Below, one piece after another: positions 3,279-35,637 of a stretch of DNA of 64,000 bases. Where the stretch lies: positions 3,681 through 67,680 of the forward strand of contig CAYXVU010000003.1 in NCBI GenBank assembly GCA_964468725.1. Direction: 5' to 3'. The first letter of the stretch is position 1; the number at the start of each line of letters is the position of its first letter. The stretch comes from an uncultured Clostridia bacterium. GTDB taxonomy: Bacteria; Acidobacteriota; Blastocatellia; UBA7656. A model generated the notes under the pieces. The model was not told the origin of the DNA, searched no databases, and saw nothing but the letters and a program-made list of their open reading frames with translations. A program made the position numbers and the translations under genes.

Positions 3279-3329
3279 TTTTACGCTCCTTTGCGATTTG
3301 GGTTACTGAACAGACCGTAGTTGGGGCAA

Positions 3330-6662: not shown

Positions 6663-6705
6663 TCGTCAGATTCGACTCGGATCGCTAACCATTGCTTGCG
6701 GCGCA

Positions 6706-7386: not shown

Positions 7387-7567
7387 CTTGATTCCCTAAG
7401 CGTAAACCGTTTCCTGCGTGATTATTGTTCACGATGAACCGAAAGGCAATCGCAAATCCTCCCGCCCTGCACACATGAATCAGAAAAATGATGCAATCAG
7501 ATTATTTACCCGATCTGCTGAAATAATGATGATAGCGGACAAAAAGGTAAGGTAGTCGGAATTATCC
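7387..7567. promoter_or_regulatory. Divergent promoter region between the PAS-LuxR gene and the Rrf2-led respiratory operon, with a candidate operator (inverted repeat ATTATTT-N14-AAATAAT)
   Basis: A 180-nt AT-richer spacer separates divergent genes. The inverted repeat lies ~20-60 nt upstream of the Rrf2 start. Confidence 0.3.
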
Positions 7568-8047
7568 ATGATGATTTTTTCAAAGACCACAGCTTACGGA
7601 GTTCGCGCCATGGCCTACCTCGCCATGCATCCTGCGCTGTGTGGTCTGAAAGAGATTGCTGAGAACGAAAAGATTCCCCCGGTCTACTTGCGAAAAGTGT
7701 TGGGCGAGTTGCGCAGGCATCGCCTCTTGCGCTCCGTTAGAGGATTGCATGGAGGCTATGAATTGGCTCGCGCGCCCGAAGCGATCACCTTGCTCGATGT
7801 TTTTCAGGTGTTGGAACCCGATCCTTATCTGGATGCCTGCATTTTGGGGCATGAGGTGTGTAAGGCCGAAACTGCCTGCGCGTTGCACGCGGAATGGCAA
7901 GGCGTGCGCGAAGAGATTGTCCGGTTATTGCAGAGTAAAACGATCTCTGATTTGGCACAGGCCACAGCGATAGACCGACCGGTTTCTATTACAGAGAGCG
8001 ACTCTCGTTGGGAAGCGCAGGAAAATTCGGATGAGTGGGAGCGATGA
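7568..8047 (+). CDS. Rrf2-family transcriptional regulator (NsrR/IscR-like, with a Cys-x-x-Cys-x5-Cys cluster-binding region)
   Basis: N-terminal winged-helix KTTAYGVRAMAYLA plus the C-terminal cysteine triad CILGHEVCKAETAC. Its stop overlaps the next start (ATGA at 8044-8047). Confidence 0.8.
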   Translation: MMIFSKTTAYGVRAMAYLAMHPALCGLKEIAENEKIPPVYLRKVLGELRRHRLLRSVRGLHGGYELARAPEAITLLDVFQVLEPDPYLDACILGHEVCKAETACALHAEWQGVREEIVRLLQSKTISDLAQATAIDRPVSITESDSRWEAQENSDEWER

Positions 8048-9960
8048 TGGCGGCACTGAAGACAGATGTTCCAGGCAGCACCTATCATCAAGACTTGATC
8101 GCTTGTCAGGTCGCTTGTCCTGTGCATACCGATGCCCGCGGTTATGTGCGCGCCATTGCCGAAGGGCGGTTTGAAGAAGCCTATCTCATCGCGCGTGGCC
8201 CGAATCCCTTTGCTTCGATCTGCGGACGCATCTGCGGCGCACCCTGCGAAGCGGCCTGCCGTCGCGGCAAAGTGCCGCGCGTTGATGATGATGGCAATTT
8301 TGTTGCGCAGGATCGCCCCATTGCCATTCGAGCGCTCAAGCGGTTCGCCTGCGAGCAAGCTGGCCCCGAAGCCCGACCCGCAGATGCCATTTTGCGTGCC
8401 GTACAATCCTTCACCCCGCCGATAGCAGCTTATCCTGAAGAGATGGCAGCGTTGTTGCGCGCCGCCATCGAAGGGAGATTGATTCCAGCCGCAGGCGAAC
8501 GCGTCGCTATCATTGGCGCAGGTCCGGCGGGGCTTTCCGCGGCGCACGATTTAGCCCTGTTAGGCTGCAAACCAGTAGTGTTTGAAAGCGAGCCGGTGGC
8601 CGCAGGTATGCTGGCTGTCGGGGTTCCTGCCTATCGCCTGCCGCGCGAATTGATTGCCCAAGAGATTGCTGTGATCGAAGCCCTCGGCGTCGAGATTCGC
8701 TGTGGGGTAACGATTGGCAAAGAGATTTCATTTGCCGATTTGCGCAGAGATTTCGCTGCCGTGCTGATTGCTGTGGGAGCGAAAGCTTCACGGAGTTTGG
8801 GGCTCGAAGGCGAACATGGGCCGCGCGTTTATGGCGGCGTTGATTTGCTGCGCGCTGTGGCGCTCGGCGAAGCCCTCGACATCGGCCAAGATGTAGTTGT
8901 CATCGGTGGCGGCAACGTTGCCTACGACGTTGCTCGCACCATTGTTCGCCAGATCGCCTATGATGCAGCGCGCACGGCGGCGCGCTTGCCTGCAACCGCC
9001 CGCGTGCGATTGATCTCATTGGAAAGCCTCGAAGAGATGCCCGCCGACACTTTGGAAATCCTGGAAGGCGATGAAGAGGGAATCGAACGCCACAACGGTT
9101 GGGGGCCGGTGCGGATTCAACGCGATGCACAGGGTAACGTGACCGGCGTCATCTTTCGCCAATGCGTTCGCGTTTACGATGAAGCGAGACGCTTCGCGCC
9201 GGTCTTCGATGATCGGGTCACGCAGAACTTGCCTTGTGACACTGTGCTGCTTTCGGTCGGTCAAGCGCCCGCCCTCTCCTTTCTCGAAGAGGGTGGCAGC
9301 GACCTTGAGATGATGCGTCCCGGGTGGCCGAAGGTTGATCCGACAACTTTGGCCACGACGGCAGAGGGGGTGTTTGTCGCGGGCGATTTGGCGCACGGGA
9401 CGCGATTGCTGATTGATGCCGTCGCTTCCGGCAAAGCGGCGGCGCGCTCGATCTATCAATTCCTTACAGGTCGCACGCTGCATGCAGAAGCCGTGACCGC
9501 GCATGCGGTTTTGCCCCACTACAGACGCGAGCGCGGCTACGAGGCGATTCGCCGCGTCGCCGTTCCAGTTATCTCGCCGGAATCACGCCTCGAACATCCT
9601 GATTTGGTGGTCGAACGAGGATACAGCCGCGAGGAAGCGCAACGCGAAGCCTCGCGTTGTCTCGATTGCGGCGTCACGCCGGTCTTCGATGGCAGCCGTT
9701 GTGTGTTGTGCGGCGGGTGCGCGGATGTTTGCCCGACCGAATGTTTGAAACTGGTTGCCCTCAGCGATCTGGATTTGACCGGAGAGTTGACCGCTGCGGT
9801 TGAAAACACGTTCGGCGCGGAGGTGGATCTATCAGAGCATTCGGCCATTCTCAAAGATGAAGATCGTTGCATTCGTTGCGCCTTGTGTGTGCAACGCTGC
9901 CCGGTTGAAGCCATCGCGATGGAGAGGGTGACATTCACCAGTGTTTGGAGGTCGCAATGA
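8044..9960 (+). CDS. GltD-like (glutamate synthase small-subunit family) FAD/NAD(P)H oxidoreductase fused to a C-terminal 2x[4Fe-4S] ferredoxin domain
   Basis: GltD-type N-terminal Fe-S region (CQVACPVHTD...CGRICGAPCEAAC). Rossmann motif VAIIGAGPAGLSAA. Two CxxCxxCxxxCP motifs at the C-terminus. There is an alternative GTG start at 8035. Confidence 0.75.
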   Translation: MMAALKTDVPGSTYHQDLIACQVACPVHTDARGYVRAIAEGRFEEAYLIARGPNPFASICGRICGAPCEAACRRGKVPRVDDDGNFVAQDRPIAIRALKRFACEQAGPEARPADAILRAVQSFTPPIAAYPEEMAALLRAAIEGRLIPAAGERVAIIGAGPAGLSAAHDLALLGCKPVVFESEPVAAGMLAVGVPAYRLPRELIAQEIAVIEALGVEIRCGVTIGKEISFADLRRDFAAVLIAVGAKASRSLGLEGEHGPRVYGGVDLLRAVALGEALDIGQDVVVIGGGNVAYDVARTIVRQIAYDAARTAARLPATARVRLISLESLEEMPADTLEILEGDEEGIERHNGWGPVRIQRDAQGNVTGVIFRQCVRVYDEARRFAPVFDDRVTQNLPCDTVLLSVGQAPALSFLEEGGSDLEMMRPGWPKVDPTTLATTAEGVFVAGDLAHGTRLLIDAVASGKAAARSIYQFLTGRTLHAEAVTAHAVLPHYRRERGYEAIRRVAVPVISPESRLEHPDLVVERGYSREEAQREASRCLDCGVTPVFDGSRCVLCGGCADVCPTECLKLVALSDLDLTGELTAAVENTFGAEVDLSEHSAILKDEDRCIRCALCVQRCPVEAIAMERVTFTSVWRSQ

Positions 9961-10442
9961 CAACCAAAGCCAGTCCCGAACAATCACGACTCGACCCGGA
10001 GCCGATGCCGCGCAGAGATTTCCTCGGACTCTCGGCACTACTGGCGGCGGCTTCGTCCATGCTGTTTGCCGTCTTTGGCATGTTGCGATTGCCGAAGGCG
10101 GCAGTCCTGGCATCGCCTTCGAAAAAGTTCAGCGTGACGCTGCCCGATGCGCTCGCGCCGAACGAGCCATTCGTTCCGGCTGGCCGCGCCGTCGCGCTGT
10201 TCAAAGATGATGAAGGCGTCTATGCCCTCTCGACCATCTGCACCCATCTCGGATGCGTCGTGAAACCATCGCCGGAAGGATTCGAATGCCCATGTCATGG
10301 CTCAGGCTTTGCTCTAAACGGAGCCGTGACAAAAGGGCCAGCGCCGCGCGCTCTGCCTTGGCTGAAGGTCAGCAACTCAGGCAACGGCTGGGTGGTGGAT
10401 GAAGGCACGACCGTGCCTGCTGGTTCAAAGGTGAAAGCATGA
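9957..10442 (+). CDS. Rieske [2Fe-2S] protein with twin-arginine signal (RRDFLG)
   Basis: Rieske boxes CTHLGC and CPCHGS. Tat motif at the N-terminus. ATGA overlap with the upstream gene; a TTG start at 9945 is also possible. Confidence 0.85.
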   Translation: MTTKASPEQSRLDPEPMPRRDFLGLSALLAAASSMLFAVFGMLRLPKAAVLASPSKKFSVTLPDALAPNEPFVPAGRAVALFKDDEGVYALSTICTHLGCVVKPSPEGFECPCHGSGFALNGAVTKGPAPRALPWLKVSNSGNGWVVDEGTTVPAGSKVKA

Positions 10443-11992
10443 AGAGCATCGCGCCAACCGATTCGGCTCTGCGAGAGTTTTGGGAGAATCTGCGCGCCGC
10501 GCCGCGCCGCCTCTATGATTCGGCCTTTCGCGGCGGCGTACCCAAGACGGATCGCACCCGCTCGACATTTGTCTTCGGCAACGTCTTCTTACACCTGCAT
10601 GCGGTGCGCGTGCATCGTTGGAGCTTGCGATGGACGACGACGGCGGGACTCGGCATTGCCAGCACCGCAGCCTTTGTCGTCACGCTGGTGACCGGCGTGC
10701 TGTTGATGTTCTATTACAAGCCCTACCCCGAAGCCGCCTACGATTCGATCAAAGATATTCACTTCGTTGTGCCGACCGGACGCTTCATTCGCAACATTCA
10801 TCGTTGGGCGGCAAACGTCATGGTCGTCGCCGTCATTTTGCATATGGCGAGGGCGTTTTATACGGCTTCGTATCGCAAGCCGCGCGAGTTCAATTGGCTG
10901 GTTGGTTGGGGGTTGCTGGTTACGACGCTCGGACTCTCGTTTACGGGATACCTGCTGCCGTGGGATCAACTGGCCTATTGGGCGATTACTATCGGCGCGA
11001 ATATCGCGCAATCGCCGCGTGAAATCACCGACGCCATTGGCATCACCGAAGCCTTCGACCCCGGCGGATTGCAACGCCTCTTGTTGCTCGGCTCCGATAC
11101 GGTAGGCGATGAAGCGTTGATTCGCTTCTATCTGCTACACGTCATGATTTTGCCGTTGATCTTGACGATGTTGATGGCCGTACACTTCTGGCGCATTCGC
11201 AAAGACGGAGGCATTGCGCGGCCTGCCGATGCCGATGCGCGACTATCGCCGCCGGAGAAAGCGACCTATCCGGTATTCACCGAAGCGCCGACAAAGACGT
11301 ATCATCTGGCCGCCATCGTGCGCGGCAAGACATCTGCCGTCGGCAATTCGCCGGAGAACACCGTGCCCTCCATGCCGCATCTGTTTTATGCCGAGTTGGC
11401 CGTCCTGATGATTACCATTTTGATCTGTCTGGCGCTGGCCATCATGGTGGATGCGCCGCTCAAAGAGCTAGCAAACCCTGCGGTTCCGGAAAATCCTGCG
11501 AAAGCGCCTTGGTACTTTCTCGGATTGCAAGAGATGGTTTCGTTCTCCGCTTTTATGGGCGGCATCGGCATTCCGACCATCGTGCTGGTCGGTTTGGGAT
11601 TGATTCCGTTTCTCGACCGTGAATCGTCCGGTACGGGCGAATGGTTCGGCGGGCCGGGCGGTTGGTCATTGGTGAAGCGATCAATCGGGGTTGGCCTGAT
11701 TGCCGCTTTGGTCGTCGAAGCCATCGCCATTCGCTTCGGTTGGATACGGGAATGGTTTCCCAACGCGCCGCAGTTGCTTATCACCTTTATCAATCCCGGA
11801 ACCGTTCTGACCTTGATCTACGCGGCGTACTCGGTATGGTGCGTGCGCCGCTATAACTCGACGCGGGCGGGGGCATTGGGATTGTTCACCTGTTTCCTTT
11901 GCGGATTTTTGTTGCTGACCATCATCGGCACCTATTTTCGCGGGCCGAACTGGGTCTTTTACTGGTCGCCCGCTCAATGGCCGGGGCATTAA
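10439..11992 (+). CDS. Cytochrome b (long form; b6 plus subunit-IV-like fusion) of a Rieske/cyt b complex
   Basis: 517 aa, multi-TM. It has conserved haem-ligand histidines in NIHRWAANVMVVAVILHMARAF and LLHVMILP...HFWRIRK. ATGA overlap with the Rieske gene. Confidence 0.85.
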   Translation: MKSIAPTDSALREFWENLRAAPRRLYDSAFRGGVPKTDRTRSTFVFGNVFLHLHAVRVHRWSLRWTTTAGLGIASTAAFVVTLVTGVLLMFYYKPYPEAAYDSIKDIHFVVPTGRFIRNIHRWAANVMVVAVILHMARAFYTASYRKPREFNWLVGWGLLVTTLGLSFTGYLLPWDQLAYWAITIGANIAQSPREITDAIGITEAFDPGGLQRLLLLGSDTVGDEALIRFYLLHVMILPLILTMLMAVHFWRIRKDGGIARPADADARLSPPEKATYPVFTEAPTKTYHLAAIVRGKTSAVGNSPENTVPSMPHLFYAELAVLMITILICLALAIMVDAPLKELANPAVPENPAKAPWYFLGLQEMVSFSAFMGGIGIPTIVLVGLGLIPFLDRESSGTGEWFGGPGGWSLVKRSIGVGLIAALVVEAIAIRFGWIREWFPNAPQLLITFINPGTVLTLIYAAYSVWCVRRYNSTRAGALGLFTCFLCGFLLLTIIGTYFRGPNWVFYWSPAQWPGH

Positions 11993-11996
11993 GGCG

Positions 11997-13652
11997 ATGA
12001 ACAAGAGCAAACATTTACTCTTATGGTCGAGCATTGGCGTGCTGACGCTGCTTATCGTTGCCGCTGTGGATGAGAACTATTGGAAAGAGTGGCGGCGCAT
12101 TCAAAAAGCGACGCGTTCGGCAGAAGGCGCGATTGATGTGCGCTTGCGGCAAGTCATCAATCCCGGACTCGCAATCTCTGACCGCTGCGTTTCGTGTCAC
12201 GTTGGGATGTCGCCGGGAGAGCAAGATATATTCGGCGCCTCAGTCGTTGCGCCGCACAAACCCGTCGTGCATCAACCAACCGAGATGGGTTGCACCATCT
12301 GTCATGGCGGGCAGGGACGCGCGACGGACAAAGCCGATGCGCACGGCGCTGTGCGATTTTGGCCGCAGCCGATGTTGCCGACAAAATACAGCTATGCGGG
12401 ATGTGGAACCTGCCACACCCCTCTACATATCCCCAGTCGGGTGGCGCTTGAGAAAGGGCGCAGCGCATTCGAGCGATTGGATTGTTACGCCTGCCATCGG
12501 TTGGACGGACGCGGCGGCACGCTGCGCCCTGGCGGCGGCGGGATGGAAGGCCCGGATTTATCGCATGTCGGACTGAAAGGCTTTGATGCGGGCTGGTATG
12601 ACAAACACCTGAAGAGTTACGAAGGCGCAACCGCCGGAACCTGGCGCGATGCGTTCGGGCCGATTGATGAAAGCGAGCGTCAAGCGCTGAGTCTTTTTCT
12701 CTCTTCGCGCATCGGCGCGCCGCGACTGATCGAAGCCAAGGCGCTGTTCAACTCGGTCGGCTGTTTGGGCTGTCATAAAGTGGGTGGTACGGGTGGCGAT
12801 GCCGGACCCGATCTGTCGCGCAGCGGCGAACGCGACCCCGGCCAACTCAATTTCACGTCGGTCAAAGGCGAACATACGTTATCGAATTGGTTGGCGGAAC
12901 ACTTTCGCTCGCCGGTCGCCACCGTACAAGGGTCGCAAATGCCGATGCTCGGGTTGACGGAATCCGAGATTGACTTGTTGACCCTGTACACGTTGTCGCT
13001 GCGGCGCAGAGAGCTGCCGAGCGTCTATCTGCCAAAAGATCGCGTGCAGGCGATGCGGTTTGGCGAGCGCGAATTTGCTACTGATGGGGCGACCGTCTTC
13101 AGCGCCATCTGCGCGGGCTGTCACGGTCGCGATGGCAAAGGCATACGCTACCCCGGCGTGCCACCCTTTCCTTCGATCATCAATCCCGATTTTTTAGAGC
13201 TTGCTTCCGATGAATTTATCGTGCAGACGATTACCAAAGGTCGCTCCGGTCGCAAGATGTTAGCGTGGGGCGAAAAAGAGGGTGGCCTGCGCCCCGACGA
13301 GATCAGAGCCGTTGTCGGGTATTTGCGACAAGCCGCAGGCAACATCGCAGCCAAACCGGAGACCGAGCCGCCGCGTTGGGTCAGAGGGGATGTGAAGTTG
13401 GGCAGCCGCCTGTTTACCGCCAACTGTGCGGGGTGTCACGGACAGAGAGGTGAAGGCGGCGAAGGCCCTGCGCTCAATAACAAAACCCTGCTCGGTTTTG
13501 CCACAGATCGCTTCTTGGTTGACACCATCAGTCGCGGGCGCAGAGGAACAGCGATGCAGAGTTTTCTCACTCCTTCGCCGGTTCGCGCTGCGCTCACGCC
13601 ATCGGAGATCGAAACCATCGTCGCGTTCATCCGCACTTGGGAGGGTAAGTAG
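11997..13652 (+). CDS. Membrane-anchored heptaheme cytochrome c (N-terminal tetrahaem module plus three class-I monohaem domains)
   Basis: Seven CxxCH motifs (CVSCH, CTICH, CGTCH, CYACH, CLGCH, CAGCH, CAGCH). N-terminal TM helix. It starts 5 nt after the cytochrome b stop. Confidence 0.8.
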
Positions 13653-13656
13653 AGTT

Positions 13657-16600
13657 ATGAAAAGAGAGATGTCACGGCGCGAATTTTTTGAACGAGTTTC
13701 AGCGGCAGGATTTGGCGCGCTCCTCGCTTCTTCGAGCCAAGCGTGGGCGCTGGAGGCCATCAGCAACCCGCTGGCGGTCTATCCGGATCGCGGTTGGGAG
13801 CGCGTCTACCGCGACCTGTGGAAATACGATTCGAAGTTCACCTTTACCTGCGCTCCCAACGATACGCACAACTGCTTGCTCAATGCCTATGTGCGTTCCG
13901 GTGTGGTAACGCGCATTGGCCCGACGATGCGCTACGGCGAAGCGACAGACCTCAACGGCAATGGCGCGACGCATCGTTGGGACCCGCGCATCTGTCAAAA
14001 AGGGCTGGCATTGACGCGACGGTTTTACGGAGATCGGCGCGTCAACGGCTGCATGGTGCGCGCCGGATTCAAACGTTGGTACGAAGAGAAGTTTCCGCGC
14101 GGCAACGATGGCCGCCCGCCGAGCGAATACTTTCAACGCGCCCGCGATGAATGGGTGCGAGTGTCGCACGACGAAGCCGCCACTATCGTTGCCGCCGCCT
14201 TGAAAAACATTGCCGAAACCTACAGCGGCGAAGAGGGCAAAAAACGGCTCAAAGCGCAGCATTACGATGAAGCGACCATCGAAGCGACGCAGGGGGCAGG
14301 CACTCAGGTCTTGAAGTTTCGCGGCGGCATGCCCCTGCTCGGCATTACACGGGTCTTCGGTATGTATCGCTTTGCCAATTCGATGGCGTTATTGGATTCG
14401 GCGATTCGCGGCGTCGAACCGGATAAAGCCATCGGCGGCAAAGGCTTCGACAATTATTCGTGGCACACAGACCTGCCGCCCGGCCATCCGATGGTGACCG
14501 GACAACAGACGGTTGAGTTCGATCTCTCTGCTGTCGAGCATGCCAAAACGGTCGTTGTCTGGGGCATGAATTGGATTACCACCAAGATGCCCGATTCGCA
14601 TTGGCTCACCGAAGCGCGGCTCAAAGGCACGCGGGTCATCGTCATCGCCTGCGAATACTCGGCGACGGCCAGCAAAGGCGATGATGTTTTAGTCGTCAGA
14701 CCCGGCACGACGCCCGCGCTCGCGCTCGGCTTTGCTAACGTAATTCTGCGAGAGAATCTCTATAACAAGGACTATGTGCGCCAGTGGACGGACTTGCCGA
14801 TTCTGGTTCGCACCGACACCTTGAAGTACCTGCGCGCCGAAGAAGTCTTCGGGCAGCGACCCGGTGCGTTGCAAGCGACTCGCGTCCTCAAAGAGGGCGA
14901 GAGGGAGCCGCCCGCCGCGCAACAAAAAGAGAGCATCATCACCGAAAAGCTGCGCTTGGAGTGGGGCGATTTTCTCTGGTGGGATCGCGCCAGCAACACG
15001 CCGAAGCTATTGACTCGCGATGAAGTTGGGAAGAATTCAAAAATCGGTGATGCCCTGTTGGAAGGCGCGGTTGAGGTGACGCTGGCAAACGGCGAGAAGG
15101 TTCGCTGTCGTCCGGTCTTCGATTTGGTGAAAGAGTATGCGGCGCATTTCGACCCGCAAACGGTCGAAGAGATTACCTGGGCACCGGCTGCCGCAGTCGA
15201 AGCTCTGGCGCGCGACTTTGCTAAAGAGCCGGGAACGACGCTTTTTGCCGTCGGCATGGGGCCGAATCAATTCTTTAACAACGACAACAAAGACCGCGAT
15301 ATTTTCCTGCTCGCGGCCTTGACCGGCAACGTCGGAAAGATCGGCGGCAACGTCGGGTCGTTTGCGGGGAATTATCGCGTTGCTCTCTTCAACGGCTCGC
15401 CTCAGTACATCAACGAAAACCCGTTCGACATTGAACTCGATCCGGCCAAACCCGCCCGCCCGCGTCAGTATTGGCGCGCGGAGTCGGCGCACTATTACAA
15501 CCACGAAGATCATCCGCTCCGCGTCGGCAACAAACTCTTAACCGGCGCGACCCACATTCCTGCGCCGACCAAGTCTTTGTGGTTTGCCAACGCCAATTCG
15601 ATACTCGGCAATGTTAAGTGGCACTACAACTCGGTGGTCAATGTGCTGCCGCGCTTCGAGATGATCGCCGTTCAAGAGTGGTGGTGGTCTACATCGTGCG
15701 AGTGGGCTGATGTCGTCTTCGGGGTGGATACGTGGGCGGAGTTGAAACACCCGGATATGACCGCATCGGTGACCAATCCGTTTTTGATTCTCTTCCCGCG
15801 CACTCCGCTGGCGCGCATCTTCAACACGATTGGCGACATAGAAGTGCTGGCGTTGGTCTCCGCGAAGATGGCCGAATTGACCGGCGACAATCGCTTTAAT
15901 GATTACTGGAAATTTGTGCGCGAGAATCGCACGGATGTCTATTTGCAACGGGTGCTCGATGCTTCGACCAACACGAAGGGGTACAAGTTTCACGAACTCG
16001 AAGCGAAAGCTCTCGAAGGCATTCCGGCGCTGATGAATTCGCGCACCACGCCGAAGGCCGTCGGCTACGATCAAGTCACCGATTCGACGCCTTGGTACAC
16101 CAAAAGCGGCAGGTTGGAGTTTTACCGCGAAGAGAACGAGTTCATCGAAGCGGGCGAAAATCTGCCGGTGCATCGAGAGCCGGTGGATTCGACTTTCTAT
16201 GAGCCAAACGTGATTATCGCGCCGCCTCACGAAGCGATTCGTCCGGCGGGGCCGGAAAGCTACGGTGTGAAACGCGACGATCTATCGTGCGAAACACGTT
16301 GCGGGCGCAATGTTGTGCTGACCTGGGAAGAGACGAAAAAGTCGGCGCACCCGCTCATCAAACAAGGCTACAAGTTTATCTTTCACACGCCGAAGTACCG
16401 GCACGGTTCGCACACGACGCCGATTGATACCGATATGGTTGCAGTGTTGTTTGGGCCTTTTGGCGACATCTATCGTCACGACAAGCGCAGCCCCTTTGTC
16501 ACCGAAGGCTATGTGGACATCAATCCCGCCGATGCGCGCGAATTGGGAGTGCACGATGGCGATTACGTTTGGGTTGACCCTGACCCGGAGGATCGCCCAT

Positions 16601-17100
16601 TTCGCGGTTGGCAAAATAACCAACGCGATTACGAATTCGCCCGCTTATTGTGTCGGGCGCGCTATTACCCCGGCACGCCGCGCGGCGTGACGCGCATGTG
16701 GTTCAACATGTACGGGGCAACGCCGGGGTCGCAACAGGGGCAACGCGAGCGCAAAGATGGACTCGCTAAAAACCCGCGCACGAACTATCAAGCGATGTTT
16801 CGTTCGGGTTCGCATCAATCGGCGACGCGCGGCTGGCTGAAGCCGACCTGGATGACCGATTCGCTGGTCAGAAAAGGACTCTTCGGGCAGGGGATTGGCA
16901 AAGGCTTTTTGCCCGATGTGCATTGCCCGACCGGCGCGCCGCGCGAAGCGATTGTCAAGATCAGCCGCGCCGAGCCGGGCGGCATTGAGGGCAAAGGGTT
17001 GTGGCGTCCCGCAGAACTTGGCATCCGACCCAATTACGAATCGCAAGAGATGCAGAGATACCTCGCCGGTCAATTCATCAGTGACGGAAAGGAGAAATAG
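13657..17100 (+). CDS. Tat-exported molybdopterin oxidoreductase catalytic (alpha) subunit, type II DMSO reductase family (periplasmic NarG/NxrA-like)
   Basis: 1147 aa, counted from the [11 protein letters not shown] start; this is the correct reading frame of the longer ORF listed in the track. It has an SRREFF twin-arginine signal, an N-terminal C-X3-D-X3-C-X39-C cluster motif, and a Nar/Nxr-like length. It is followed directly by its beta subunit. Confidence 0.8.
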
Positions 17101-17102
17101 CT

Positions 17103-18254
17103 ATGGCTCGCGTTTACAACTGGCAACTCGGAAGGCAGATGTCCTACTGGTATCCTGAAAGTCGCCCGCAAAAACAGTTCGCGGCGGTCTTTGACATCAA
17201 TAAATGCATCGCGTGTCAAACCTGCACTTTGGCCTGCAAGACGACGTGGACATCAGGGCAAGGGCAAGAGTACATGCTTTGGAACAACGTCGAGACCAAA
17301 CCTTATGGCTTCTATCCGTTGGCCTGGGATTTGAAACTTCTCGAAAAACTTGAAGGGCAGAATTGGGCGACCGGCGAATACGAAGGACGCCCGACTCACA
17401 CCTACGAAGGGCGCACCATCTTTGAAGCCGCCCCGCCCGGCGAGCGCGTTTTAGGATGGAGGCCGGAAGATCAAGACTACGCCTATCCCAACGTCGGCGA
17501 AGACGATTGCGCGGGGCAGATCGAACATGGCGCGAGTTTGCAAGTGCCGCATATGAACTGGTTTTTCTATCTGGCGCGCATTTGCAATCACTGCACCTAT
17601 CCTGCCTGTCTATCATCCTGTCCACGCGGGTCAATCTATAAACGACCGGAAGATGGCATTGTATTGCTCGATCAAGGCCGCTGTCGCGGCTATCAGGAAT
17701 GCGTCAAAGCCTGCCCGTACAAGAAGGTCTTCTTCAATGCGCTGACCGGCACATCGGAAAAATGCATCGCCTGTTTTCCGAAGATTGAACAGGGGTTGCA
17801 ACCGCAATGCTTCGTCAACTGCATCGGCAAGATTCGCTTGGCAGGTTGGATTTCGCCTCCCGATAAAGCCAAAGCCGATAACCCGATAGACTATCTTGTA
17901 CACATTCGCAAAATCGCATTGCCGCTCTTTCCGCAATTCGGCTTGGAACCGAACGTCTATTACATCCCGCCGATTCACGCGCCCGCATCGTTTCTGCGGC
18001 AGATGTTCGGGCCGGGCGCAGAAGAGGCTGTGAAGACTTACCGACAAGCCGCACAAGACCCGGAACTCTCCGGCCTGCTCGGACTCTTTGGCTCGACGGA
18101 GATGGTGATACCCAAATGGCGGCGGCAAGGTGATCGAGTGATTGGCATAACCGAATCGGGCGCGGAGGCCGTGCGAGTGCCGCTGCGGGAGCCGATTCAG
18201 ATTCGCCCGGCCTACGATCAGTTGTACCAGATTTCGCGGGTGAATTGCCCGTGA
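17103..18254 (+). CDS. Iron-sulfur beta subunit (NarH/NxrB-like, four Fe-S cluster motifs) of the type II DMSOR enzyme
   Basis: [38 protein letters not shown] and [11 protein letters not shown]...C. Good RBS. It starts 3 nt after the alpha subunit stop. Confidence 0.8.
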
Positions 18255-18351
18255 GGGCATGAAAGCTGAGATAGGAGAATCGGCGCAAAGGTTCAACCAG
18301 ATTTGCGGACGGTTCACAGAGTCGCATCCGCGAAGCGAAGAAGGAGGCTGT

Positions 18352-19206
18352 ATGCGGACACCACTTCGATATATTGCAGGGGTGATGATCTTCAGTTTGG
18401 TGATGAGTTGGGGGTGTCGTCGGGCGACGGTTTTGACTCCCGAAGTCGTTGCGGTTACGGCCAAGCAACTACCAACCGACCCCGGCGACCCGGCGTGGGA
18501 TAAGGTCTCTGAGCATGTGGCCAAGTTGGTGCTGCAAGATTTGGTCGAGCCGCGCTTGATGGAGGCTTCGACGCCGGAAGTTCACGTCCGCGCCATAACC
18601 GACGGCACGGAGGTTGCCTTTCGATTGCAGTGGGCAGACCCGACGATCAATGATGCGCCCGGCCCAATGCATTTTCTCGATGCCTGCGCGGTTCAGGTGC
18701 CTTCGAAGGTCGAAGCGAATGTACCCGCGCCGCAGATGGGCGAAGCGGGCAAGCCCGTCGAAATCGCCTTTTGGCGTGCCGATTGGCAAGCTTCGGTTGA
18801 CGGGCGCGAAGACTCGATCAACGCCTTGCACCCCAATGCTTCGGTGGATCATTACCCTTACAACGCACAGTCATTAGAGAAAGGTTCGGAAGCGCAGCAA
18901 GAGATGGCGAAACGGTACGCTCCGGCCAGCGCGGTTGGCAATCGCCGCGTCGGCCCGCGCAACACGCCGGTTGAAGACTTAATTGCCGAAGGGCCGGGCA
19001 CGCTCTCCCCCGCGCCGCAATCGCTGTCAAAAGGGCGCGGCGCGCATGGGCAGGATGGTTGGTCGGTCGTCATTATTCGTCATTTGCCCAATGATTGGAC
19101 GCCGCAGACGCGCTCGCAGATTGCGTTTGCCGTGTGGGAAGGAAATCATCAAGAGGCTGGCGCACGCAAGATGCGAACGGGATGGATTCCGTTGTTGATG
19201 AGGTGA
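18352..19206 (+). CDS. Putative gamma subunit (ethylbenzene-dehydrogenase-gamma / NxrC-like haem b domain) with signal peptide or lipobox
   Basis: Strong RBS AAGGAGG before the ATG at 18352. Signal peptide with ...LVMSWGC. Its size and position match EB_dh-type gamma subunits. No CxxCH is present, which is consistent with haem b. Family assignment is by architecture only. Confidence 0.5.
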   Translation: MRTPLRYIAGVMIFSLVMSWGCRRATVLTPEVVAVTAKQLPTDPGDPAWDKVSEHVAKLVLQDLVEPRLMEASTPEVHVRAITDGTEVAFRLQWADPTINDAPGPMHFLDACAVQVPSKVEANVPAPQMGEAGKPVEIAFWRADWQASVDGREDSINALHPNASVDHYPYNAQSLEKGSEAQQEMAKRYAPASAVGNRRVGPRNTPVEDLIAEGPGTLSPAPQSLSKGRGAHGQDGWSVVIIRHLPNDWTPQTRSQIAFAVWEGNHQEAGARKMRTGWIPLLMR

Positions 19207-19211
19207 GCAAG

Positions 19212-19862
19212 ATGAACGCGCAGGTGTTACAAGAACTACAGACGCGCAGGCTGTTGCGGGAAGCGACCGAGTGGCGGTTGCTGAGTTTGCTATTTGAATG
19301 TCCGACCGGAGGCTGGCGCGACAAGATCAGGGGGCTGGCCGCAGAGGTAACGGATGAAGATTTGAAGGCCGCAGTCGTAGCCGCTACAGTAGAAGCGAGC
19401 GAGGGGCTTTATCATTCGCTCTTTGGCCCCGGCGGCCCGGCTCCGGCGCGCGAAATCAGCCATCGGGCTTTGATTCAACCAGGCTATCTGATGGCTGAAT
19501 TGAGGAGTTACTACGACGCTTTCTCTTATCATGCCAATGCGGCGGAGGCGGTCGATCATGTGGCGGTAGAAGCCGGATTCCTCGCTTATCTGCGGTTGAA
19601 GGAAGCTTACGCAGCGGATTGTGGCGATGCCGAGAAGGCCGAATTGACGGCGGCGGCAGCACAGAGCTTTATGCGAGAGCACTTGGCTTTCGTTGCCGAA
19701 CCGCTCGCTGCTGCGCTTCAGCATTCTGGGGTGGGTTATCTGGCATTGGCCGGGCAGGCTTTGCTGCATCGCGCCGGTTCTGCCAAGCGCACAGCGCAAG
19801 GGCAACCGCTGCCCATCTTGTCTGAAGATGATGATTGTATGTTCGCCTGCGGAGAGTCGTAA
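19212..19862 (+). CDS. TorD/NarJ-family redox-enzyme maturation chaperone
   Basis: ~216 aa. The conserved TorD-like stretch EAVDHVAVEAGFLAYL resembles E-P-D-H-x-x-x-E-L-x-F. It occupies the last position of the operon, as chaperones do in nar/ddh/ser clusters. Confidence 0.6.
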   Translation: MNAQVLQELQTRRLLREATEWRLLSLLFECPTGGWRDKIRGLAAEVTDEDLKAAVVAATVEASEGLYHSLFGPGGPAPAREISHRALIQPGYLMAELRSYYDAFSYHANAAEAVDHVAVEAGFLAYLRLKEAYAADCGDAEKAELTAAAAQSFMREHLAFVAEPLAAALQHSGVGYLALAGQALLHRAGSAKRTAQGQPLPILSEDDDCMFACGES

Positions 19863-20101
19863 CTTGTGCGCACGATTGGCAACCTGTGGCGCAAATGAGA
19901 GTTGGAACGGATGGCCTTCGATTGAGGGAAATTCCTCAACTCCGATGGGCGAAAAGCCCAAATTGGCAGGCCAAATCGAGAGCTTCATTTGCAAATCCTG
20001 TGCATTCGGCGAGGCACATGATTTGCCCTTTCAGCCGATGTTGTCTGTTTGACAACTAACTGATTTGGCTCTCTGCAAGGATGTGAACTGAGGAGTTTCT
20101 G

Positions 20102-21655
20102 GTGATGAAGAACAACGCAACTGCGCGAATGAGGCTGAAAAAGTATTTCGTATGGGTTGCTCTGATCGCTCTGACGCTAACGGGTTGGGTGAATCGGGTG
20201 ATGGCGCAGCAGCCTGCAACCGCGAGCAGCACAGCAAAACCGGCGACGCAATCGCCCGCGCCCATCAAGATCGGCGATCTAACCTTTTCCGGCAGCCTGC
20301 GCCTGCGCGCCGAGAATTGGAATTGGTTTGAAACCGCTGCCGCCGATCACGATTACACCTTCGGAGCCGCCGTGTTGCGGTTGAGCCTCGCTCAACAAAC
20401 CGAGCGGCTCGATTGGCAAGTCGAAGGCATGTTTCCGGCGCTTATCAATCTGCCGGAGAAGGCCATTGCCCCCGCGCCGCAAGGGCAACTGGGACTCGGA
20501 GCCAGCTACTTTGCTGCCAACGGACAGCAGGATGCGAGCGCTATATTGAGACAGGCCTTCGTGCGCTTCAAAGGGCTGGGCGGCGATCAAGCGAGCAGTC
20601 TGCGAATCGGGCGATTCGAATTTGTCGAAGGCGCAGAGACTACACCTGCCGACGCAACGCTGGCAACCCTCAAACGCGATCATCTGGCGCATCGTCTGAT
20701 CGGCACTTTTGGCTTTTCGCATGTCGGGCGCAGTTTTGACGGCGTGCAGTATGCGCGGAATACCAAGACCTCCAATGTAACGGTAGTCGCGGCGCGACCA
20801 ACCGAAGGGGTCTTTCAATTGCGCAGCCTCTACGAACTGGATGTGGACTTCTATTACGGAGCCTATACCCGACCCTTTGCGACGAAGAATACGAAGAGCG
20901 ACGTGCGCGCTTTCGCCTTGCACTATCATGATGGCCGTCCGGCGCTGAAGACCGACAATCGCCCTTTGTTGGCGCGCCAAGCCGATGGCGAGAACCTGCG
21001 ATTGACCACCATCGGCGGACATTCGATTACGGCCATGAAAGCAGGAAGCGGAACCGCCGATCTGCTAGTTTGGGGAGTCGGACAATTCGGCAGTTGGGGC
21101 AGGCTCGATCATCGCGCCGGAGCCATCGCTGTAGAGGCAGGTTATCAACCGGGCGGCGCGCTTGCCGCCAAACTCAAACCCTGGATACGGGGCGGCTACT
21201 TCCGCAGCACCGGAGACGGCAATCCCGGCGATGATGCGCACACCACCTTTTTTCAAGTGCTGCCAACGCCGCGCATCTACGCGCGCTTTCCCTTTTACAA
21301 CCTCATGAATAATGAAGATGTGTTCGCGCAACTGCGGCTGAAACCGCATGCGCGGTTGGCGCTGCGCGGTGACGTTCGTCATCTGCGCTTGAGCAATGAA
21401 AATGATCTTTGGTATGTGGGCGGCGGCGCGTTTCAGAAAAATTCCTTCGGATACATTGGGCGACCGAGCGGCGGGAAAAAGAGTATGGGGACGCTCTTTG
21501 ATGTGAGCCTGGATTACACGGTGGCGTCACGCACGGCGTTGACCTTTTATGTGGGAGGAGTGCGCGGCGGCGGCGTGCCTGCCGCCATTTATCCGCAAGG
21601 CGGGAATAATCCGGCAGCCCATTTTCTCTACTTCGAATTCACCCAGCGATTTTAG
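20102..21655 (+). CDS. Outer-membrane beta-barrel protein (putative porin) with signal peptide
   Basis: N-terminal signal (ALIALTLTGWVNRVMAQQ). Alternating amphipathic beta strands. C-terminal aromatic-terminal motif ...YFEFTQRF. Confidence 0.5.
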   Translation: MMKNNATARMRLKKYFVWVALIALTLTGWVNRVMAQQPATASSTAKPATQSPAPIKIGDLTFSGSLRLRAENWNWFETAAADHDYTFGAAVLRLSLAQQTERLDWQVEGMFPALINLPEKAIAPAPQGQLGLGASYFAANGQQDASAILRQAFVRFKGLGGDQASSLRIGRFEFVEGAETTPADATLATLKRDHLAHRLIGTFGFSHVGRSFDGVQYARNTKTSNVTVVAARPTEGVFQLRSLYELDVDFYYGAYTRPFATKNTKSDVRAFALHYHDGRPALKTDNRPLLARQADGENLRLTTIGGHSITAMKAGSGTADLLVWGVGQFGSWGRLDHRAGAIAVEAGYQPGGALAAKLKPWIRGGYFRSTGDGNPGDDAHTTFFQVLPTPRIYARFPFYNLMNNEDVFAQLRLKPHARLALRGDVRHLRLSNENDLWYVGGGAFQKNSFGYIGRPSGGKKSMGTLFDVSLDYTVASRTALTFYVGGVRGGGVPAAIYPQGGNNPAAHFLYFEFTQRF

Positions 21656-21722
21656 TGAGAGCGGATTCTTCCCTCACGCTAGGGTGTGAACCGTGCCCGT
21701 CCGCAGTGGTAGATAGAAGGAG

Positions 21723-22475
21723 GTGGTTATGATGATTGATAGCGCAGAGACCGTCGGCCAATTGGCGGTTATGATTCCCGGGGCGACGCAAATTTTCGAA
21801 CAACTACAGATTGACTATTGCTGTAAGGGGAATCAGACGCTATTGGAAGCTTGCACGACGGCAAACATTCCGATTGCGTTGGTGATCGTCTCTCTGCAAC
21901 AGGCAGAGGCTGCGGGACAAGCTGCCGAAGCCGCGCCGCAAAGCTGGCAGCACGCTACCCTTACCGAGTTGATCGCTCATATTCTGGAGACCCATCACGT
22001 CTACACGCGCGCGGAGTTGGAGCGACTGGAATCTTTGCTTGCCAAAGTCGTTTCCGTGCATGAAAAGAATCACCCCGAGTTGGCGGCGTTGCAGAAGAGC
22101 TTCTTTGTCTTAAAGCAAGACTTGCTGCCGCATATGTATAAAGAAGAGCAAGTGTTGTTTCCGTACCTGATGGAGATGGAAGCCTTGATCGCCCGACAAC
22201 AGAGCGTGCCGCGTCCGTTCTTCGGCTCGGCGCAGAATCCCATTCGGATGATGATGCTGGAGCACGATGCGGCGGGCGAGGCGCTGCGCGAGATGCGCGC
22301 CTTGACGCAGGATTACCGACTGCCTGCGGATGCCTGTCCGAGCTATCACAATCTCTACAGCGGTCTGGCGGCATTCGAAGCCGACTTGCACCGGCACATT
22401 CACTTGGAGAACAACCTGCTCTTTCCTCGCGCTTTGGCGATAGAGAGCCGAGCCGCGAGCGCGACCGTCGCTTGA
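21723..22475 (+). CDS. ytfE: Iron-sulfur cluster repair di-iron protein (YtfE/ScdA/RIC family)
   Basis: ScdA N-terminal motif QIDYCCKG. The C-terminal region has the His/Glu-rich hemerythrin-like di-iron domain (HHVYTRAELE...; HIHLENN). Confidence 0.75.
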   Translation: MVMMIDSAETVGQLAVMIPGATQIFEQLQIDYCCKGNQTLLEACTTANIPIALVIVSLQQAEAAGQAAEAAPQSWQHATLTELIAHILETHHVYTRAELERLESLLAKVVSVHEKNHPELAALQKSFFVLKQDLLPHMYKEEQVLFPYLMEMEALIARQQSVPRPFFGSAQNPIRMMMLEHDAAGEALREMRALTQDYRLPADACPSYHNLYSGLAAFEADLHRHIHLENNLLFPRALAIESRAASATVA

Positions 22476-22476
22476 G

Positions 22477-23295
22477 ATGAAGAGCAAACCGCCCATTCCA
22501 AAAGAACACGGCGCGTGGGCGATGCTCTACGCGCCGCTGGTCATGGCAGCATTGTCATTCGGCAGGTTCGACCTGCGCGGTATCCTCTTCTTCGTCGCCG
22601 TGACCGGCGTCTTTTTGGCGCACGAACCGTTTGCCGCTCTAGCCAGACTCCGACCTTCGCAACCGAACGGCCTGCAACGCCGAAGTCAGGCGCGCGTGTG
22701 GTTAGCGATTTACGCCCTCATTGCCGTTGCCGCAACGCTGCCGTTGTTGTTGACGTATGATCGCTGGTTGTTGCTGCCTTTCGGGGCTGTCTTGCTGGTG
22801 TTGCTGCTCTTACATATTTGGATGGCGGCCAAACGCGCCGAACGCAAAGTGGTAGGGGAACTGCTCGGCGTCATCAGCCTGACGATGACCGCGCCCGGAG
22901 CCTACTATGTCATCGCCGGACGATTTGACGAGATGAGTTTATTGATTTGGGTTTTGAACCTGCTCTATTTCGCAAGCGCCGTCTTTTACGTAAAGATGAG
23001 AGTCAGCCGTTATGCACAAAAGCCGGATGCCGGGTTGCGCACGTGGCAATGTGTGATCTATCACCTCGGCTTAGGCGCGCTCGTCTTTTTGGCTCTTCGA
23101 TGGGAGTTAGTTTCGAGCCTTCTGCTGTTGGCCTACTTTCCCATCATGATTCGCGCCTTTGCAGGGCTGCGCCCGCAGGGGCAACGATTGAACCTCAAAC
23201 GCATCGGCGTTGCCGAACTCGGTTACACGGTCGTCTTCATCATCTTCGCTGTTTGGGGTATCTACCTCCACTCTCCGCTGCCATCTCCATCTTGA
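22477..23295 (+). CDS. Polytopic membrane protein of unknown function (possibly YwiC-like)
   Basis: 272 aa with ~7 predicted TM helices and a conserved-looking N-terminus EHGAWAMLYAPL. It starts 2 nt after ytfE. The family assignment is uncertain. Confidence 0.4.
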   Translation: MKSKPPIPKEHGAWAMLYAPLVMAALSFGRFDLRGILFFVAVTGVFLAHEPFAALARLRPSQPNGLQRRSQARVWLAIYALIAVAATLPLLLTYDRWLLLPFGAVLLVLLLLHIWMAAKRAERKVVGELLGVISLTMTAPGAYYVIAGRFDEMSLLIWVLNLLYFASAVFYVKMRVSRYAQKPDAGLRTWQCVIYHLGLGALVFLALRWELVSSLLLLAYFPIMIRAFAGLRPQGQRLNLKRIGVAELGYTVVFIIFAVWGIYLHSPLPSPS

Positions 23296-23355
23296 GTCTC
23301 CGCCTGTCTTTCGCCTGATTGAAGGTGTGATCGGGGACTCGCAACCTGACAAGTA

Positions 23356-32450: not shown

Positions 32451-32482
32451 AGAAGGCGCTTCAAATTGTCTGGTACAGGAGG

Positions 32483-35184: not shown

Positions 35185-35637
35185 ATGAGAGCACGCACAC
35201 TACAAAGCATCATTCTGGGCATCGGGCTAGGGGTGATTGTCGGCATCGGCGGTTATACCTTCATCTATGCGAAGGGCTATTCCTATCTCACCAACGATCC
35301 GGCTTCGTGTGCGAACTGTCACGTCATGCAAGATCACTACGATGGTTGGATCAAATCGAGCCATCGGTCGGTGGCGACTTGCAATGATTGCCACACGCCG
35401 CCGGGTGCCATAGCCAAGTATGCAACGAAAGCCTCAAACGGCTTTTGGCACTCGTTCGCTTTTACGACCGGACGATTCCCCGAACCGCTGCGCATCAAAA
35501 CCCATAACCGCGAGGTCACCGAACAAGCCTGCCGGAAATGTCATCAAGAGATTGTTGATGCCATCGAAGGGCAGCACGCAGGCGCACAGGAGTTGTCCTG
35601 TCTGCGTTGTCACGGTTCGGTTGGCCATCTGAGATAG
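35185..35637 (+). CDS. nrfH: NrfH, membrane-anchored tetrahaem cytochrome c (NapC/NirT family) quinol dehydrogenase
   Basis: N-terminal TM helix plus four CxxCH motifs (CANCH, CNDCH, CRKCH, CLRCH) in ~150 aa. Confidence 0.85.
   Translation: MRARTLQSIILGIGLGVIVGIGGYTFIYAKGYSYLTNDPASCANCHVMQDHYDGWIKSSHRSVATCNDCHTPPGAIAKYATKASNGFWHSFAFTTGRFPEPLRIKTHNREVTEQACRKCHQEIVDAIEGQHAGAQELSCLRCHGSVGHLR

Follow-up and report, generated by a model that had tools for sequence, protein, structure and literature searches.

An eight-gene block joining a nitrite oxidoreductase-type molybdoenzyme to a Rieske/cytochrome b unit and a predicted NAD-linked flavoprotein in Acidobacteriota and Planctomycetota

Two kinds of respiratory system described from anammox bacteria are the closest known counterparts of the operon that is the subject of this work. 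The first is nitrite oxidoreductase (NXR), represented by the NXR-ABC complex of Kuenenia stuttgartiensis (KsNXR; PDB 7B04; PMC8387239), which oxidises nitrite in these bacteria; the 15-gene nxr cluster of Kuenenia encodes the tubule-forming NXR-T, and neither Rieske/cytochrome b nor flavoprotein genes have been reported in it (PMC8387239). The second comprises the complexes Kuste4569-4574 and Kustd1480-1485, whose subunits include a Rieske protein, a b6-like cytochrome b, a multihaem cytochrome c and a cytoplasmic NAD(P) (nicotinamide adenine dinucleotide, or its phosphate) oxidoreductase with flavin adenine dinucleotide (FAD) and iron-sulphur (FeS) clusters. For these complexes Kartal and colleagues proposed that a low-potential electron from quinol reduces NAD(P)+, and Hauser et al. 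provided energetic support for such a reaction (10.1101/2025.06.25.661457). Here we describe an operon in which counterparts of both systems are encoded side by side. It lies within a 64,000-nucleotide stretch of DNA, hereafter the window (assembly GCA_964468725.1, contig CAYXVU010000003.1, positions 3,681 to 67,680 of the forward strand), deposited as from an uncultured Clostridia bacterium and placed by GTDB in the Acidobacteriota (Blastocatellia; UBA7656). Each half of the operon is of a known kind; the two are joined in a block of eight genes.

An initial annotation of the window had described nine genes running in one direction on the plus strand, from an Rrf2-family regulator to a TorD-like chaperone, and all nine are in place, with every domain assignment upheld by Pfam and NCBIfam (Table 1). 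At the first three junctions (8044, 9957 and 10439) neighbouring genes overlap by ATGA, and the remaining five as listed are gaps of 4, 4, 2, 4 and 5 nt, in agreement with the annotation apart from the gap between beta and gamma, which becomes 97 nt because the start of gamma is more likely to be the ATG at 18352 than that at 18259. The former has a Shine-Dalgarno-like AAGGAGG 6 nt upstream, a signal-peptide-like N-terminus and a product of 284 residues, comparable to the 280-288 residues of its homologues, whereas the latter would add 31 residues that no homologue supports. A promoter and terminator scan of positions 6600-23600 returned counts equal to those of shuffled sequence, and so says nothing for or against a single transcript, and an Rfam scan of the whole window produced no matches (e.g., to the molybdenum cofactor (Moco) riboswitch).

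Table 1. Genes of the operon and of its downstream region in the window, with the number of related loci that carry each core gene out of those with enough flanking DNA (aa, amino acids; TM, transmembrane; Tat, twin-arginine translocation).
Feature	Coordinates	Strand	Evidence and remarks	Present in related loci
Rrf2-family regulator	7568..8047	+	Pfam Rrf2 1.9e-35; accessory gene, outside conserved core	
NfnB/GltD-like FeS-flavoprotein, 638 aa	8044..9960	+	Fer4_20 + Pyr_redox_2 + C-terminal 2x[4Fe-4S]	61/61
Rieske [2Fe-2S] protein	9957..10442	+	Pfam Rieske; Tat motif RRDF; one TM segment	62/63
Cytochrome b, 517 aa	10439..11992	+	Pfam Cytochrome_B, Cytochrom_B_N_2; NCBIfam ExtP/ExtQ-like models	65/65
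Heptahaem cytochrome c (c7), 551 aa	11997..13652	+	Pfam Cytochrom_C, Cytochrome_CBB3; seven CXXCH	73/73
Molybdopterin catalytic subunit alpha, 1147 aa	13657..17100	+	SRREFF Tat motif; classed as NXR type	
FeS beta subunit, 383 aa	17103..18254	+	Fer4_11; TIGR03478 1.7e-80	69/69
Haem b gamma subunit, 284 aa	18352..19206 (revised start)	+	Pfam EB_dh, TIGR03477	65/66
NarJ/TorD-like chaperone (delta)	19212..19862	+	Pfam Nitrate_red_del, TIGR03482	59/60
Alginate_exp-family outer-membrane porin-like protein	20102..21655	+	Pfam 2.3e-13	
RIC/YtfE di-iron Fe-S repair protein	21723..22475	+	TIGR03652 241.5 bits, cut-off 204.7	
YwiC-like membrane protein	22477..23295	+	Pfam YwiC	
NrfH	35185..35637	+	TIGR03153 167 bits, cut-off 134	
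NrfA (cytochrome c552)	35753..37150	+	Pfam Cytochrom_C552 9e-137	

When one genome per species was searched with the alpha subunit, at least 583 matching stretches were obtained, so that an arrangement the initial annotation had considered exceptional in bacteria is in fact widespread; a separate cluster search yielded 2542 clusters that match alpha at E<=1e-20, and members of this alpha clade are common in metagenomes of soil, sediment and wastewater. Gene order was compared in the best 80 loci, which belong to the Acidobacteriota (Blastocatellia, Pyrinomonadaceae, Bryobacterales, Solibacteraceae, and Vicinamibacterales), the Planctomycetota (Thermoguttaceae, Pirellulales, and Phycisphaerae), the Acidimicrobiia and the Zixibacteria. 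Alpha identity across these loci was 77-86%, the closest matches to alpha being from Blastocatellia (87-88%), and median identity to the window proteins was 80% for alpha and 79% for cytochrome b, falling to 52% for the chaperone. The eight-gene block was colinear throughout, without a single violation of gene order, and in a planctomycete isolate its junctions likewise overlap or nearly abut. An order kept without exception across four phyla and 80 loci, together with junctions that overlap, argues for one functional unit, and the arrangement is far beyond chance. As the flanking genes vary between loci, the eight genes appear to act as a self-contained block. The Rrf2 gene, counted by the initial annotation as part of a nine-gene unit, has a homologue near the block in only 25 of 88 loci, often at about 30% identity, and we therefore take the conserved unit to be the eight genes that follow it. 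The Rrf2 protein falls under every NCBIfam equivalog cut-off (IscR, NsrR, RirA) and is probably an Fe-S/NO-responsive regulator.

Insertions within the block were also seen. In a Pyrinomonadaceae locus (L083) a 148-residue hydrophobic protein of no family (13447-13893) stands between alpha and beta, and a hemerythrin-like protein (15975-16448) between gamma and the chaperone. Comparable alpha-beta gaps of about 500 nt occur in L012, L021-L028, L035-L037, L042 and L053, which represent one subclade.

The catalytic half of the block closely resembles the Kuenenia enzyme. The best solved relative of alpha is KsNXR-A (7b04_B, 2e-249, full length), with PcrA second (7.8e-43) and NarG and EbdA at about 1e-35 to 1e-37, the NarG match (~1e-35) being confined to a short stretch; beta and gamma likewise match 7b04_A (3.8e-121) and 7b04_C (5.9e-17) best. 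The FS0 motif of alpha, CAPNDTHNC, conforms to the C-x-P-N-D-T-H-x-C of the Kuenenia enzyme and aligns with its C67, N70, D71 and C75, and the aspartate of a WHTD motif aligns with its Asp275. In KsNXR-A, Asp71 ligates the FS0 cluster, Asn70 positions the substrate and Asp275 ligates the molybdenum (PMC8387239). The same FS0 motif is found in the Gaiellaceae, SAR202 and Tectomicrobia relatives of alpha, and a Tat motif, which the Kuenenia alpha subunit shares, in every alpha relative compared. In the EB_dh-type gamma subunit, the residues matching Met155 and Lys305 of KsNXR-C, which stand at the haem b ligand positions of KsNXR-C and EbdC, are a methionine in 100% and a lysine in 99% of orthologues. 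From these features the catalytic module is predicted to be periplasmic and alpha is classed as NXR type, not NarG type, in keeping with two proposals of the initial annotation, namely that a periplasmic molybdoenzyme is linked to a Rieske/cytochrome b complex in one operon and that its alpha subunit resembles NXR more than NarG. The substrate pair is very likely nitrate/nitrite. A canonical NarGHI was considered and rejected, as alpha has a Tat signal and its FS0 site has Cys/Asp rather than His; moreover, Pfam detected no NarI family member among the operon open reading frames (ORFs). Alpha does not group with canonical NarG, and the outcome that the initial annotation had named as refuting its reading did not arise.

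The alpha clade of the window forms a group of its own, separate from the Kuenenia type (about 40% identical by our estimate, in which the bit score is scaled against proteins whose identity is known), its nearest relatives being Gaiellaceae (53%) and SAR202 (44%) proteins. At the 50%-identity level, relatives of alpha came from Gaiellaceae, SAR202, Tectomicrobia, Thermincola, Obscuribacterales, Halorussus and metagenomes, and none of the representatives retrieved at this level is named as a known nitrite oxidiser. A published tree places related sequences from Planctomycetota and Thermogutta terrifontis in a major clade with the NxrA of nitrite-oxidising and anammox bacteria (PMC10732223). 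The closest alpha relatives that lack Rieske/cytochrome b genes are 40-53% identical, and within the clade of about 80% identity the catalytic and Rieske/cytochrome b halves were never found apart; the joining of the halves is therefore a property of this clade. Two loci illustrate the simpler arrangement, one from Gaiellaceae (L087, 9732-15986) with alpha, beta, gamma and chaperone genes, and one from a metagenome (L086, 163-6307; alpha 40%) with alpha, a small ORF, beta and chaperone genes, both without Rieske/cytochrome b or flavoprotein genes.

Two further arrangements in the literature bear comparison. The initial annotation took as its model the haloarchaeal pNar system (NarGH with the Rieske protein NarB and cytochrome b NarC), in which a Tat-exported type II DMSO (dimethyl sulfoxide) reductase on the outer face of the membrane is likewise encoded with Rieske and cytochrome b genes, whose products presumably oxidise quinol (PMC4683180). 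This comparator proved to be a functional analogue only. The pNarG-type protein of Halorussus is 28.6% identical to alpha and has CxPNCT at FS0, with Cys where the window protein has Asp, so that we rejected orthology to haloarchaeal pNarG and regard the wiring as merely analogous. The descriptions of haloarchaeal Nar clusters cited in that source, taken as descriptions and not as inspected loci, mention no flavoprotein or heptahaem cytochrome c (PMC4683180). A further difference is the APWY-clade cytochrome b of the window operon. Another parallel in layout is the cluster THTE_1506-1512 of T. terrifontis R1, in which genes for TorD, "NarI," NarH, NarG, cytochrome c, cytochrome b and Rieske have the same order (PMC5673643). 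This cluster was annotated as a cytoplasmic NarGHI with a nearby complex III, without mention of the flavoprotein or the periplasmic orientation (PMC5673643), and its NarG falls in the NXR clade of the published tree (PMC10732223). The bacterium grows anaerobically with nitrate and has NrfAH elsewhere in its genome (PMC5673643). Our searches with a Thermoguttaceae alpha and the Thermopirellula c7 found Thermopirellula and "Thermogutta sp." but not T. terrifontis R1; in the "Thermogutta sp." genomes the operon is complete, with its Rrf2 and flavoprotein genes.

The other half of the block is closest to the anammox Rieske/cytochrome b complexes. In the Rieske protein, the Cys/His cluster ligands are conserved in 100% of sequences and the motif CPCHGSGF (S-F type) has the hydrogen-bonding Ser without the Tyr. 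Its two best solved relatives, 9rk4 and 9rk3 (~4e-15), outrank all b6f and bc1 Rieske proteins (b6f Rieske, 2e-11), and both the names under which they were deposited ("Similar to ... Rieske ...") and their Ser/Tyr pattern agree with the pair of crystallised Kuenenia Rieske proteins in the anammox study (10.1101/2025.06.25.661457). One of these, Kustd1480, has the same Ser-without-Tyr pattern and a measured potential of +335 mV (10.1101/2025.06.25.661457).

The cytochrome b has a four-helix core like that of cytochrome b6, whose members are its best solved relatives, and continues into a subunit-IV-like portion with about five helices. Hydropathy gave six strong helices and three weaker ones that were judged by eye; within the C-terminal part four segments exceeded the threshold and the fifth (~450-470) was judged by eye. 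The haem ligands His121, His135, His234 and His249 are conserved, APWY is the Qo motif of all 71 sequences, and the loops on the P side are the most conserved regions of the protein. The cysteine to which haem cN is bound in b6f is absent: all orthologues have T[AML]GLG in place of CxGG, and no Cys before residue 330 is conserved. On the cytoplasmic N-terminus, all 67 sequences covering the region have the same three histidines (H52, H54, and H59), whose position may be comparable to that of an anammox histidine (Kuste4571 His43, Kustd1481 His62) proposed to bind an extra haem b between monomers. This trio is on the face where the flavoprotein should dock. Also invariant or nearly so, among the orthologues covering them, are H108, H314, H517, C330 and C485/C488, H517 being the final residue of the protein. 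The c7 cytochrome has exactly seven CXXCH motifs, each conserved at 0.96 or above, with four set closely together at residues 64-167 and the remainder in three class-I cytochrome c domains, and its N-terminal TM helix predicts that it is membrane-anchored.

A cytochrome b clade defined by the APWY motif was recognised by Kao and Hunte (2014) in several phyla of menaquinone-containing organisms, with Rieske partners of mid to high potential and without a characterised member (PMC4122944). The window operon shares with it APWY, an S-F (mid-plus potential) Rieske partner and a long cytochrome b encoded in a large conserved operon, as well as a patchy distribution across phyla that suggests horizontal transfer; the difference is that the clade was described as uncharacterised, and the paper draws no link to an NXR-type enzyme. 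Dibrova et al. (2017) described a clade G′ of long cytochromes b encoded in large conserved operons of unknown function (PMC5600118), to which the window cytochrome b may belong; that paper, too, makes no connection with an NXR-type enzyme.

The flavoprotein that opens the block has as its best solved relatives 9bov, 8oh5_C, NfnA (9n5u) and NfnB (4ylf_B), at 1.3e-72 to 1e-34. It matches the NfnB/GltD/StnC family in both Rossmann motifs and in the Cys pattern of the N-terminus, and differs from it in an added C-terminal two-cluster ferredoxin domain and in its partner, which would be a membrane cytochrome b instead of NfnA or GltB. About 20 Cys are conserved at 0.92 or above, among them seven in the N-terminal region and eleven in the C-terminal, including two CxxCxxCxxxC motifs, and the conserved set is therefore enough for four FeS clusters in addition to FAD. 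A topology scan found no hydrophobic segment or signal peptide, and the protein is predicted to be cytoplasmic. At residues 325-328 (window 9016-9027) it has S-L-E-S in place of Y-R-R-[T/S], the Leu-Glu pair being invariant in 64 of 64 orthologues. In every NADPH-dependent solved relative (NfnB, StnC, and others) Y-R-R follows the second Rossmann strand, so that by the usual Rossmann-fold rule S-L-E predicts NAD(H) over NADP(H), for which the enzyme is probably specific. The initial annotation regarded such a flavoprotein as unusual; it is instead a hallmark of the anammox Rieske/cytochrome b complexes and of cytochrome b subfamily G (PMC5600118).

The resemblance to the anammox complexes, which we judged by sequence for the Rieske protein and by architecture for the remaining subunits, extends to the flavoprotein, as Kuste4570 and Kustd1483 have been modelled with the same four FeS clusters and FAD that we predict here, and may extend to the subunit-IV part, which has five helices instead of three in the anammox complexes. 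There are also differences. The anammox cytochrome b is split, whereas that of the window is fused to subunit IV; haem cN is modelled as bound by the Cys of CxGG, which the window protein lacks; and the anammox cytochromes c have six or eight haems, not seven. The anammox oxidoreductases are linked to NAD(P), while the nucleotide site of the window protein looks NAD-specific. Lastly, the exergonic partner in anammox bacteria is an HAO-like octahaem protein or unknown, whereas in the window an NXR-type molybdoenzyme is encoded in the same operon.

We tentatively favour a reading in which the block encodes a quinol:nitrate assembly that also reduces NAD+ by electron bifurcation. The products of the eight core genes would then make up a single respiratory assembly, in which menaquinol supplies the electrons for periplasmic reduction of nitrate to nitrite. 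Quinol would be oxidised at the Qo site (APWY) of cytochrome b, with protons released outside. The high-potential electron would travel from the Rieske protein through the heptahaem cytochrome c, the haem b of gamma, the FeS chain of beta and FS0 to the molybdenum of alpha, and so to nitrate, while the low-potential electron would cross the membrane via the b haems and pass through four FeS clusters and FAD to NAD+. Nitrate reduction would be the exergonic branch, and its nitrite would pass to NrfHA. Published potentials of about -70 mV for menaquinone, -320 mV for NAD(P) and +420 mV for nitrate/nitrite (10.1101/2025.06.25.661457; PMC8387239) make the exergonic branch worth about 490 mV and the cost of the endergonic one about 250 mV plus the membrane potential, and the scheme is therefore feasible with little to spare. 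A Rieske protein of mid or high potential in a menaquinone organism would be what bifurcation needs.

Several points weigh against bifurcation. The haem cN cysteine of the anammox models is missing from the predicted cytochrome b, and as this protein is fused rather than split, the exit route of the low-potential electron may differ. A heterotroph has no obvious need for NADH made from quinol and, were that NADH recycled through complex I, we estimate that the H+/e- ratio would near the thermodynamic limit. That the eight products form one complex we infer from synteny, and we likewise infer the direction of catalysis and, above all, that of the NAD branch. The link to T. terrifontis is one of gene order and the published tree, not of sequence. 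KsNXR works reversibly in vitro (PMC8387239), and such Planctomycetota genes have been read in two papers as nitrite oxidoreductases (PMC10732223; 10.1101/2020.05.19.103440). The family of the flavoprotein is a further consideration. Enzymes of the NfnB/GltD/DPD family mostly take electrons from pyridine nucleotide, the reverse of what bifurcation would ask of this one.

This last point leads to the alternative that survives best, although we think it unlikely, in which the flavoprotein is an electron input. NADH would reduce menaquinone by way of the FeS clusters and an N-side haem or quinone site, and a Q cycle would deliver the electrons to nitrate, making the block a self-contained NADH:nitrate chain, an option that Hauser et al. 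raised for the anammox complexes (10.1101/2025.06.25.661457). The invariant Glu in place of the NADPH-binding Arg pair points to catabolic NADH, the N-side D-E linker of cytochrome b is conserved (32 of 66 positions invariant) in a manner compatible with a working N-side site, and a portable chain would explain the spread of the block across phyla. However, no N-side quinone site can be recognised in the sequence, the missing haem cN cysteine being relevant here too, and NADH input would waste the NADH-to-menaquinone energy that complex I would conserve. It also leaves a mid- or high-potential Rieske protein in menaquinone organisms unexplained (PMC4122944), a feature for which the bifurcating assembly has a use.

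The direction of the molybdoenzyme was said in the initial annotation to be unreadable, and sequence alone indeed does not fix it; gene context and host physiology nevertheless favour nitrate reduction. In the window, the RIC and YwiC-like genes come next after the porin-like gene that follows the operon, NrfHA is encoded about 15 kb downstream and a Crp/Fnr regulator about 10 kb downstream. With the ammonia-forming NrfHA present, the window is predicted to encode both steps from nitrate to ammonium, and NrfHA probably consumes the nitrite made by the operon enzyme. Within 10 kb of the block in related loci we found RIC in 27, Crp/Fnr in 10 and NrfHA in 1 (Thermoguttaceae), and neither oxidase nor CO2-fixation genes stood beside the block in any locus inspected. 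An identical operon is present in the isolate Thermopirellula anaerolimosa (locus L081), described as an obligate anaerobic hydrogen producer (title cited in PMC11929135). Taken together, the neighbouring NrfHA, RIC, quinol-type NO reductase (qNOR) and Crp/Fnr genes and the anaerobic or nitrate-respiring hosts favour nitrate reduction that feeds DNRA (the dissimilatory route from nitrate to ammonium), and we believe it rather likely that the enzyme physiologically reduces nitrate and is fed through the Rieske/cytochrome b unit. Thus, nitrate reduction is proposed for the window operon where nitrite oxidation is the function of the Kuenenia enzyme.

The Thermopirellula locus has some features of its own (152-3530 and 16177-21034). 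Upstream of its operon, and divergent, are genes for an Rrf2-hemerythrin fusion and the qNOR, and downstream are the six Moco genes moaA, moaD, moaE, moeA, moaC/B and a mobA-like gene.

The opposite assignment, as a nitrite oxidoreductase, would have periplasmic nitrite oxidised and its electrons passed via gamma and c7 to a terminal oxidase, with the Rieske/cytochrome b-flavoprotein unit running in reverse to make quinol or NAD(P)H. The NXR-type alpha, beta and gamma with their Asp-ligated FS0, the bidirectionality of KsNXR (PMC8387239), the reversed Q cycle proposed for the APWY-clade bc complex of Geobacter metallireducens (PMC4122944), and the proposals from metagenome-assembled genomes (MAGs) for related Planctomycetota genes (PMC10732223; 10.1101/2020.05.19.103440) are all consistent with it. 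We nonetheless consider it improbable, as the operon is carried by an obligate anaerobe (PMC11929135) and by members of a genus that includes a nitrate-respiring isolate (PMC5673643), and its neighbours are those of nitrite and NO metabolism given above (NrfHA, RIC, qNOR, and Crp/Fnr) and not oxidases or CO2-fixation genes. Furthermore, the uphill transfer of electrons at +420 mV to menaquinone (-70 mV) would exceed what a reversed Q cycle can supply, and bifurcation in reverse would also consume NADH. The host lineages, moreover, are known mainly as heterotrophs.

It is also conceivable, but quite improbable, that the block holds two independent units that are merely co-transcribed, that is, a general quinol:cytochrome c reductase (Rieske, cytochrome b and c7, with the flavoprotein optional) and a soluble periplasmic alpha-beta-gamma enzyme serving as one of several acceptors for cytochrome c. 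The Rieske/cytochrome b/cytochrome c genes of T. terrifontis are the only "complex III" listed for it and have been assigned to aerobic respiration as well (PMC5673643, Supplementary Table 6), the Gaiellaceae relative of alpha (53%) occurs as alpha-beta-gamma-delta alone, and hydropathy gives gamma no membrane helix. Two independent units would not, however, be expected to keep a fixed order and never part within the clade of about 80% identity, nor to meet as closely as c7 and alpha do, with a 4-nt gap in the window and a 4-nt overlap in Thermopirellula. Finally, chlorate, perchlorate or selenate as the substrate is very improbable even though the type II DMSO reductases include such enzymes and PcrA is the second-best solved match (7.8e-43), because the KsNXR-A match is some 200 orders of magnitude better than those to PcrA, NarG or EbdA, the substrate Asn, Mo-ligand Asp and NXR-type FS0 are all present (PMC8387239), the recurrent neighbours NrfHA, RIC and qNOR handle nitrite and NO, and those window ORFs that were scanned yielded no chlorite dismutase domain.

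Pieces of this system have been seen before, in the T. terrifontis cluster, in the NXR-like genes of Planctomycetota MAGs, in the APWY clade and possibly in clade G′. Our literature search, whose coverage excluded most subscription-journal papers, turned up no paper that treats the eight genes as one module, or that recognises in hundreds of genomes from outside the anammox bacteria the joining of an anammox-type NAD-linked Rieske/cytochrome b unit with an NXR-type enzyme. It is possible, if doubtful, that cultivable hosts other than anammox bacteria possess, in this block, a naturally bifurcating Rieske/cytochrome b complex in which built-in NXR-type nitrate reduction drives electrons from menaquinol to NAD+. 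If bifurcation is true, it would be a new and highly efficient form of energy conservation in nitrate respiration, and the APWY cytochrome b clade would gain a function (PMC4122944). The diversion of a low-potential electron to NAD(P)+ has been untestable so far because anammox bacteria are neither axenic nor open to manipulation; with that architecture also present in isolates (Thermopirellula, Thermogutta), alongside a defined high-potential partner, the bifurcating-bc hypothesis can be put to the test. There are also consequences for the nitrogen cycle. The alpha clade is at present labelled "nitrate reductase / nitrite oxidoreductase" or read as belonging to new nitrite oxidisers (PMC10732223; 10.1101/2020.05.19.103440). 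Should its members be nitrate reductases that feed DNRA, many of the "nxrA" hits in Acidobacteriota and Planctomycetota of soil and sludge would be nitrate reducers, and inferences drawn from metagenomes would change.

Of the other genes near the operon, that for the porin-like protein has a homologue near the block in 11 loci, immediately 3′ of delta in eight of them, and the encoded protein is perhaps an accessory channel for the anions nitrate or nitrite. In L084, a Pirellulaceae locus, the block has a Porin_O_P gene nearby. Further along the window, a parallel beta-helix protein (TIGR03805) adjoins an SO2930-family dihaem cytochrome c (TIGR03806) at 23809-26147, both above the model cut-offs, and a 751-residue protein at 26499-28754 belongs to the acidobacterial VWA-domain family TIGR03436 (230 bits), which agrees with an Acidobacteriota origin of the DNA. 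Between the Crp/Fnr regulator and an ankyrin-repeat gene are three successive ORFs (30987-33646; 487, 198, and 188 residues) without a significant Pfam match, the longest also being without an NCBIfam match. The ankyrin-repeat ORF (33699-34367) and a hemerythrin ORF (34175-34930) overlap by about 190 nt, and the hemerythrin start is probably downstream of the TTG listed for it. At 49321-51412, a gene for a MoxR-type AAA ATPase is followed by a DUF58/VWA gene, resembling a Bat/MoxR-like cluster.

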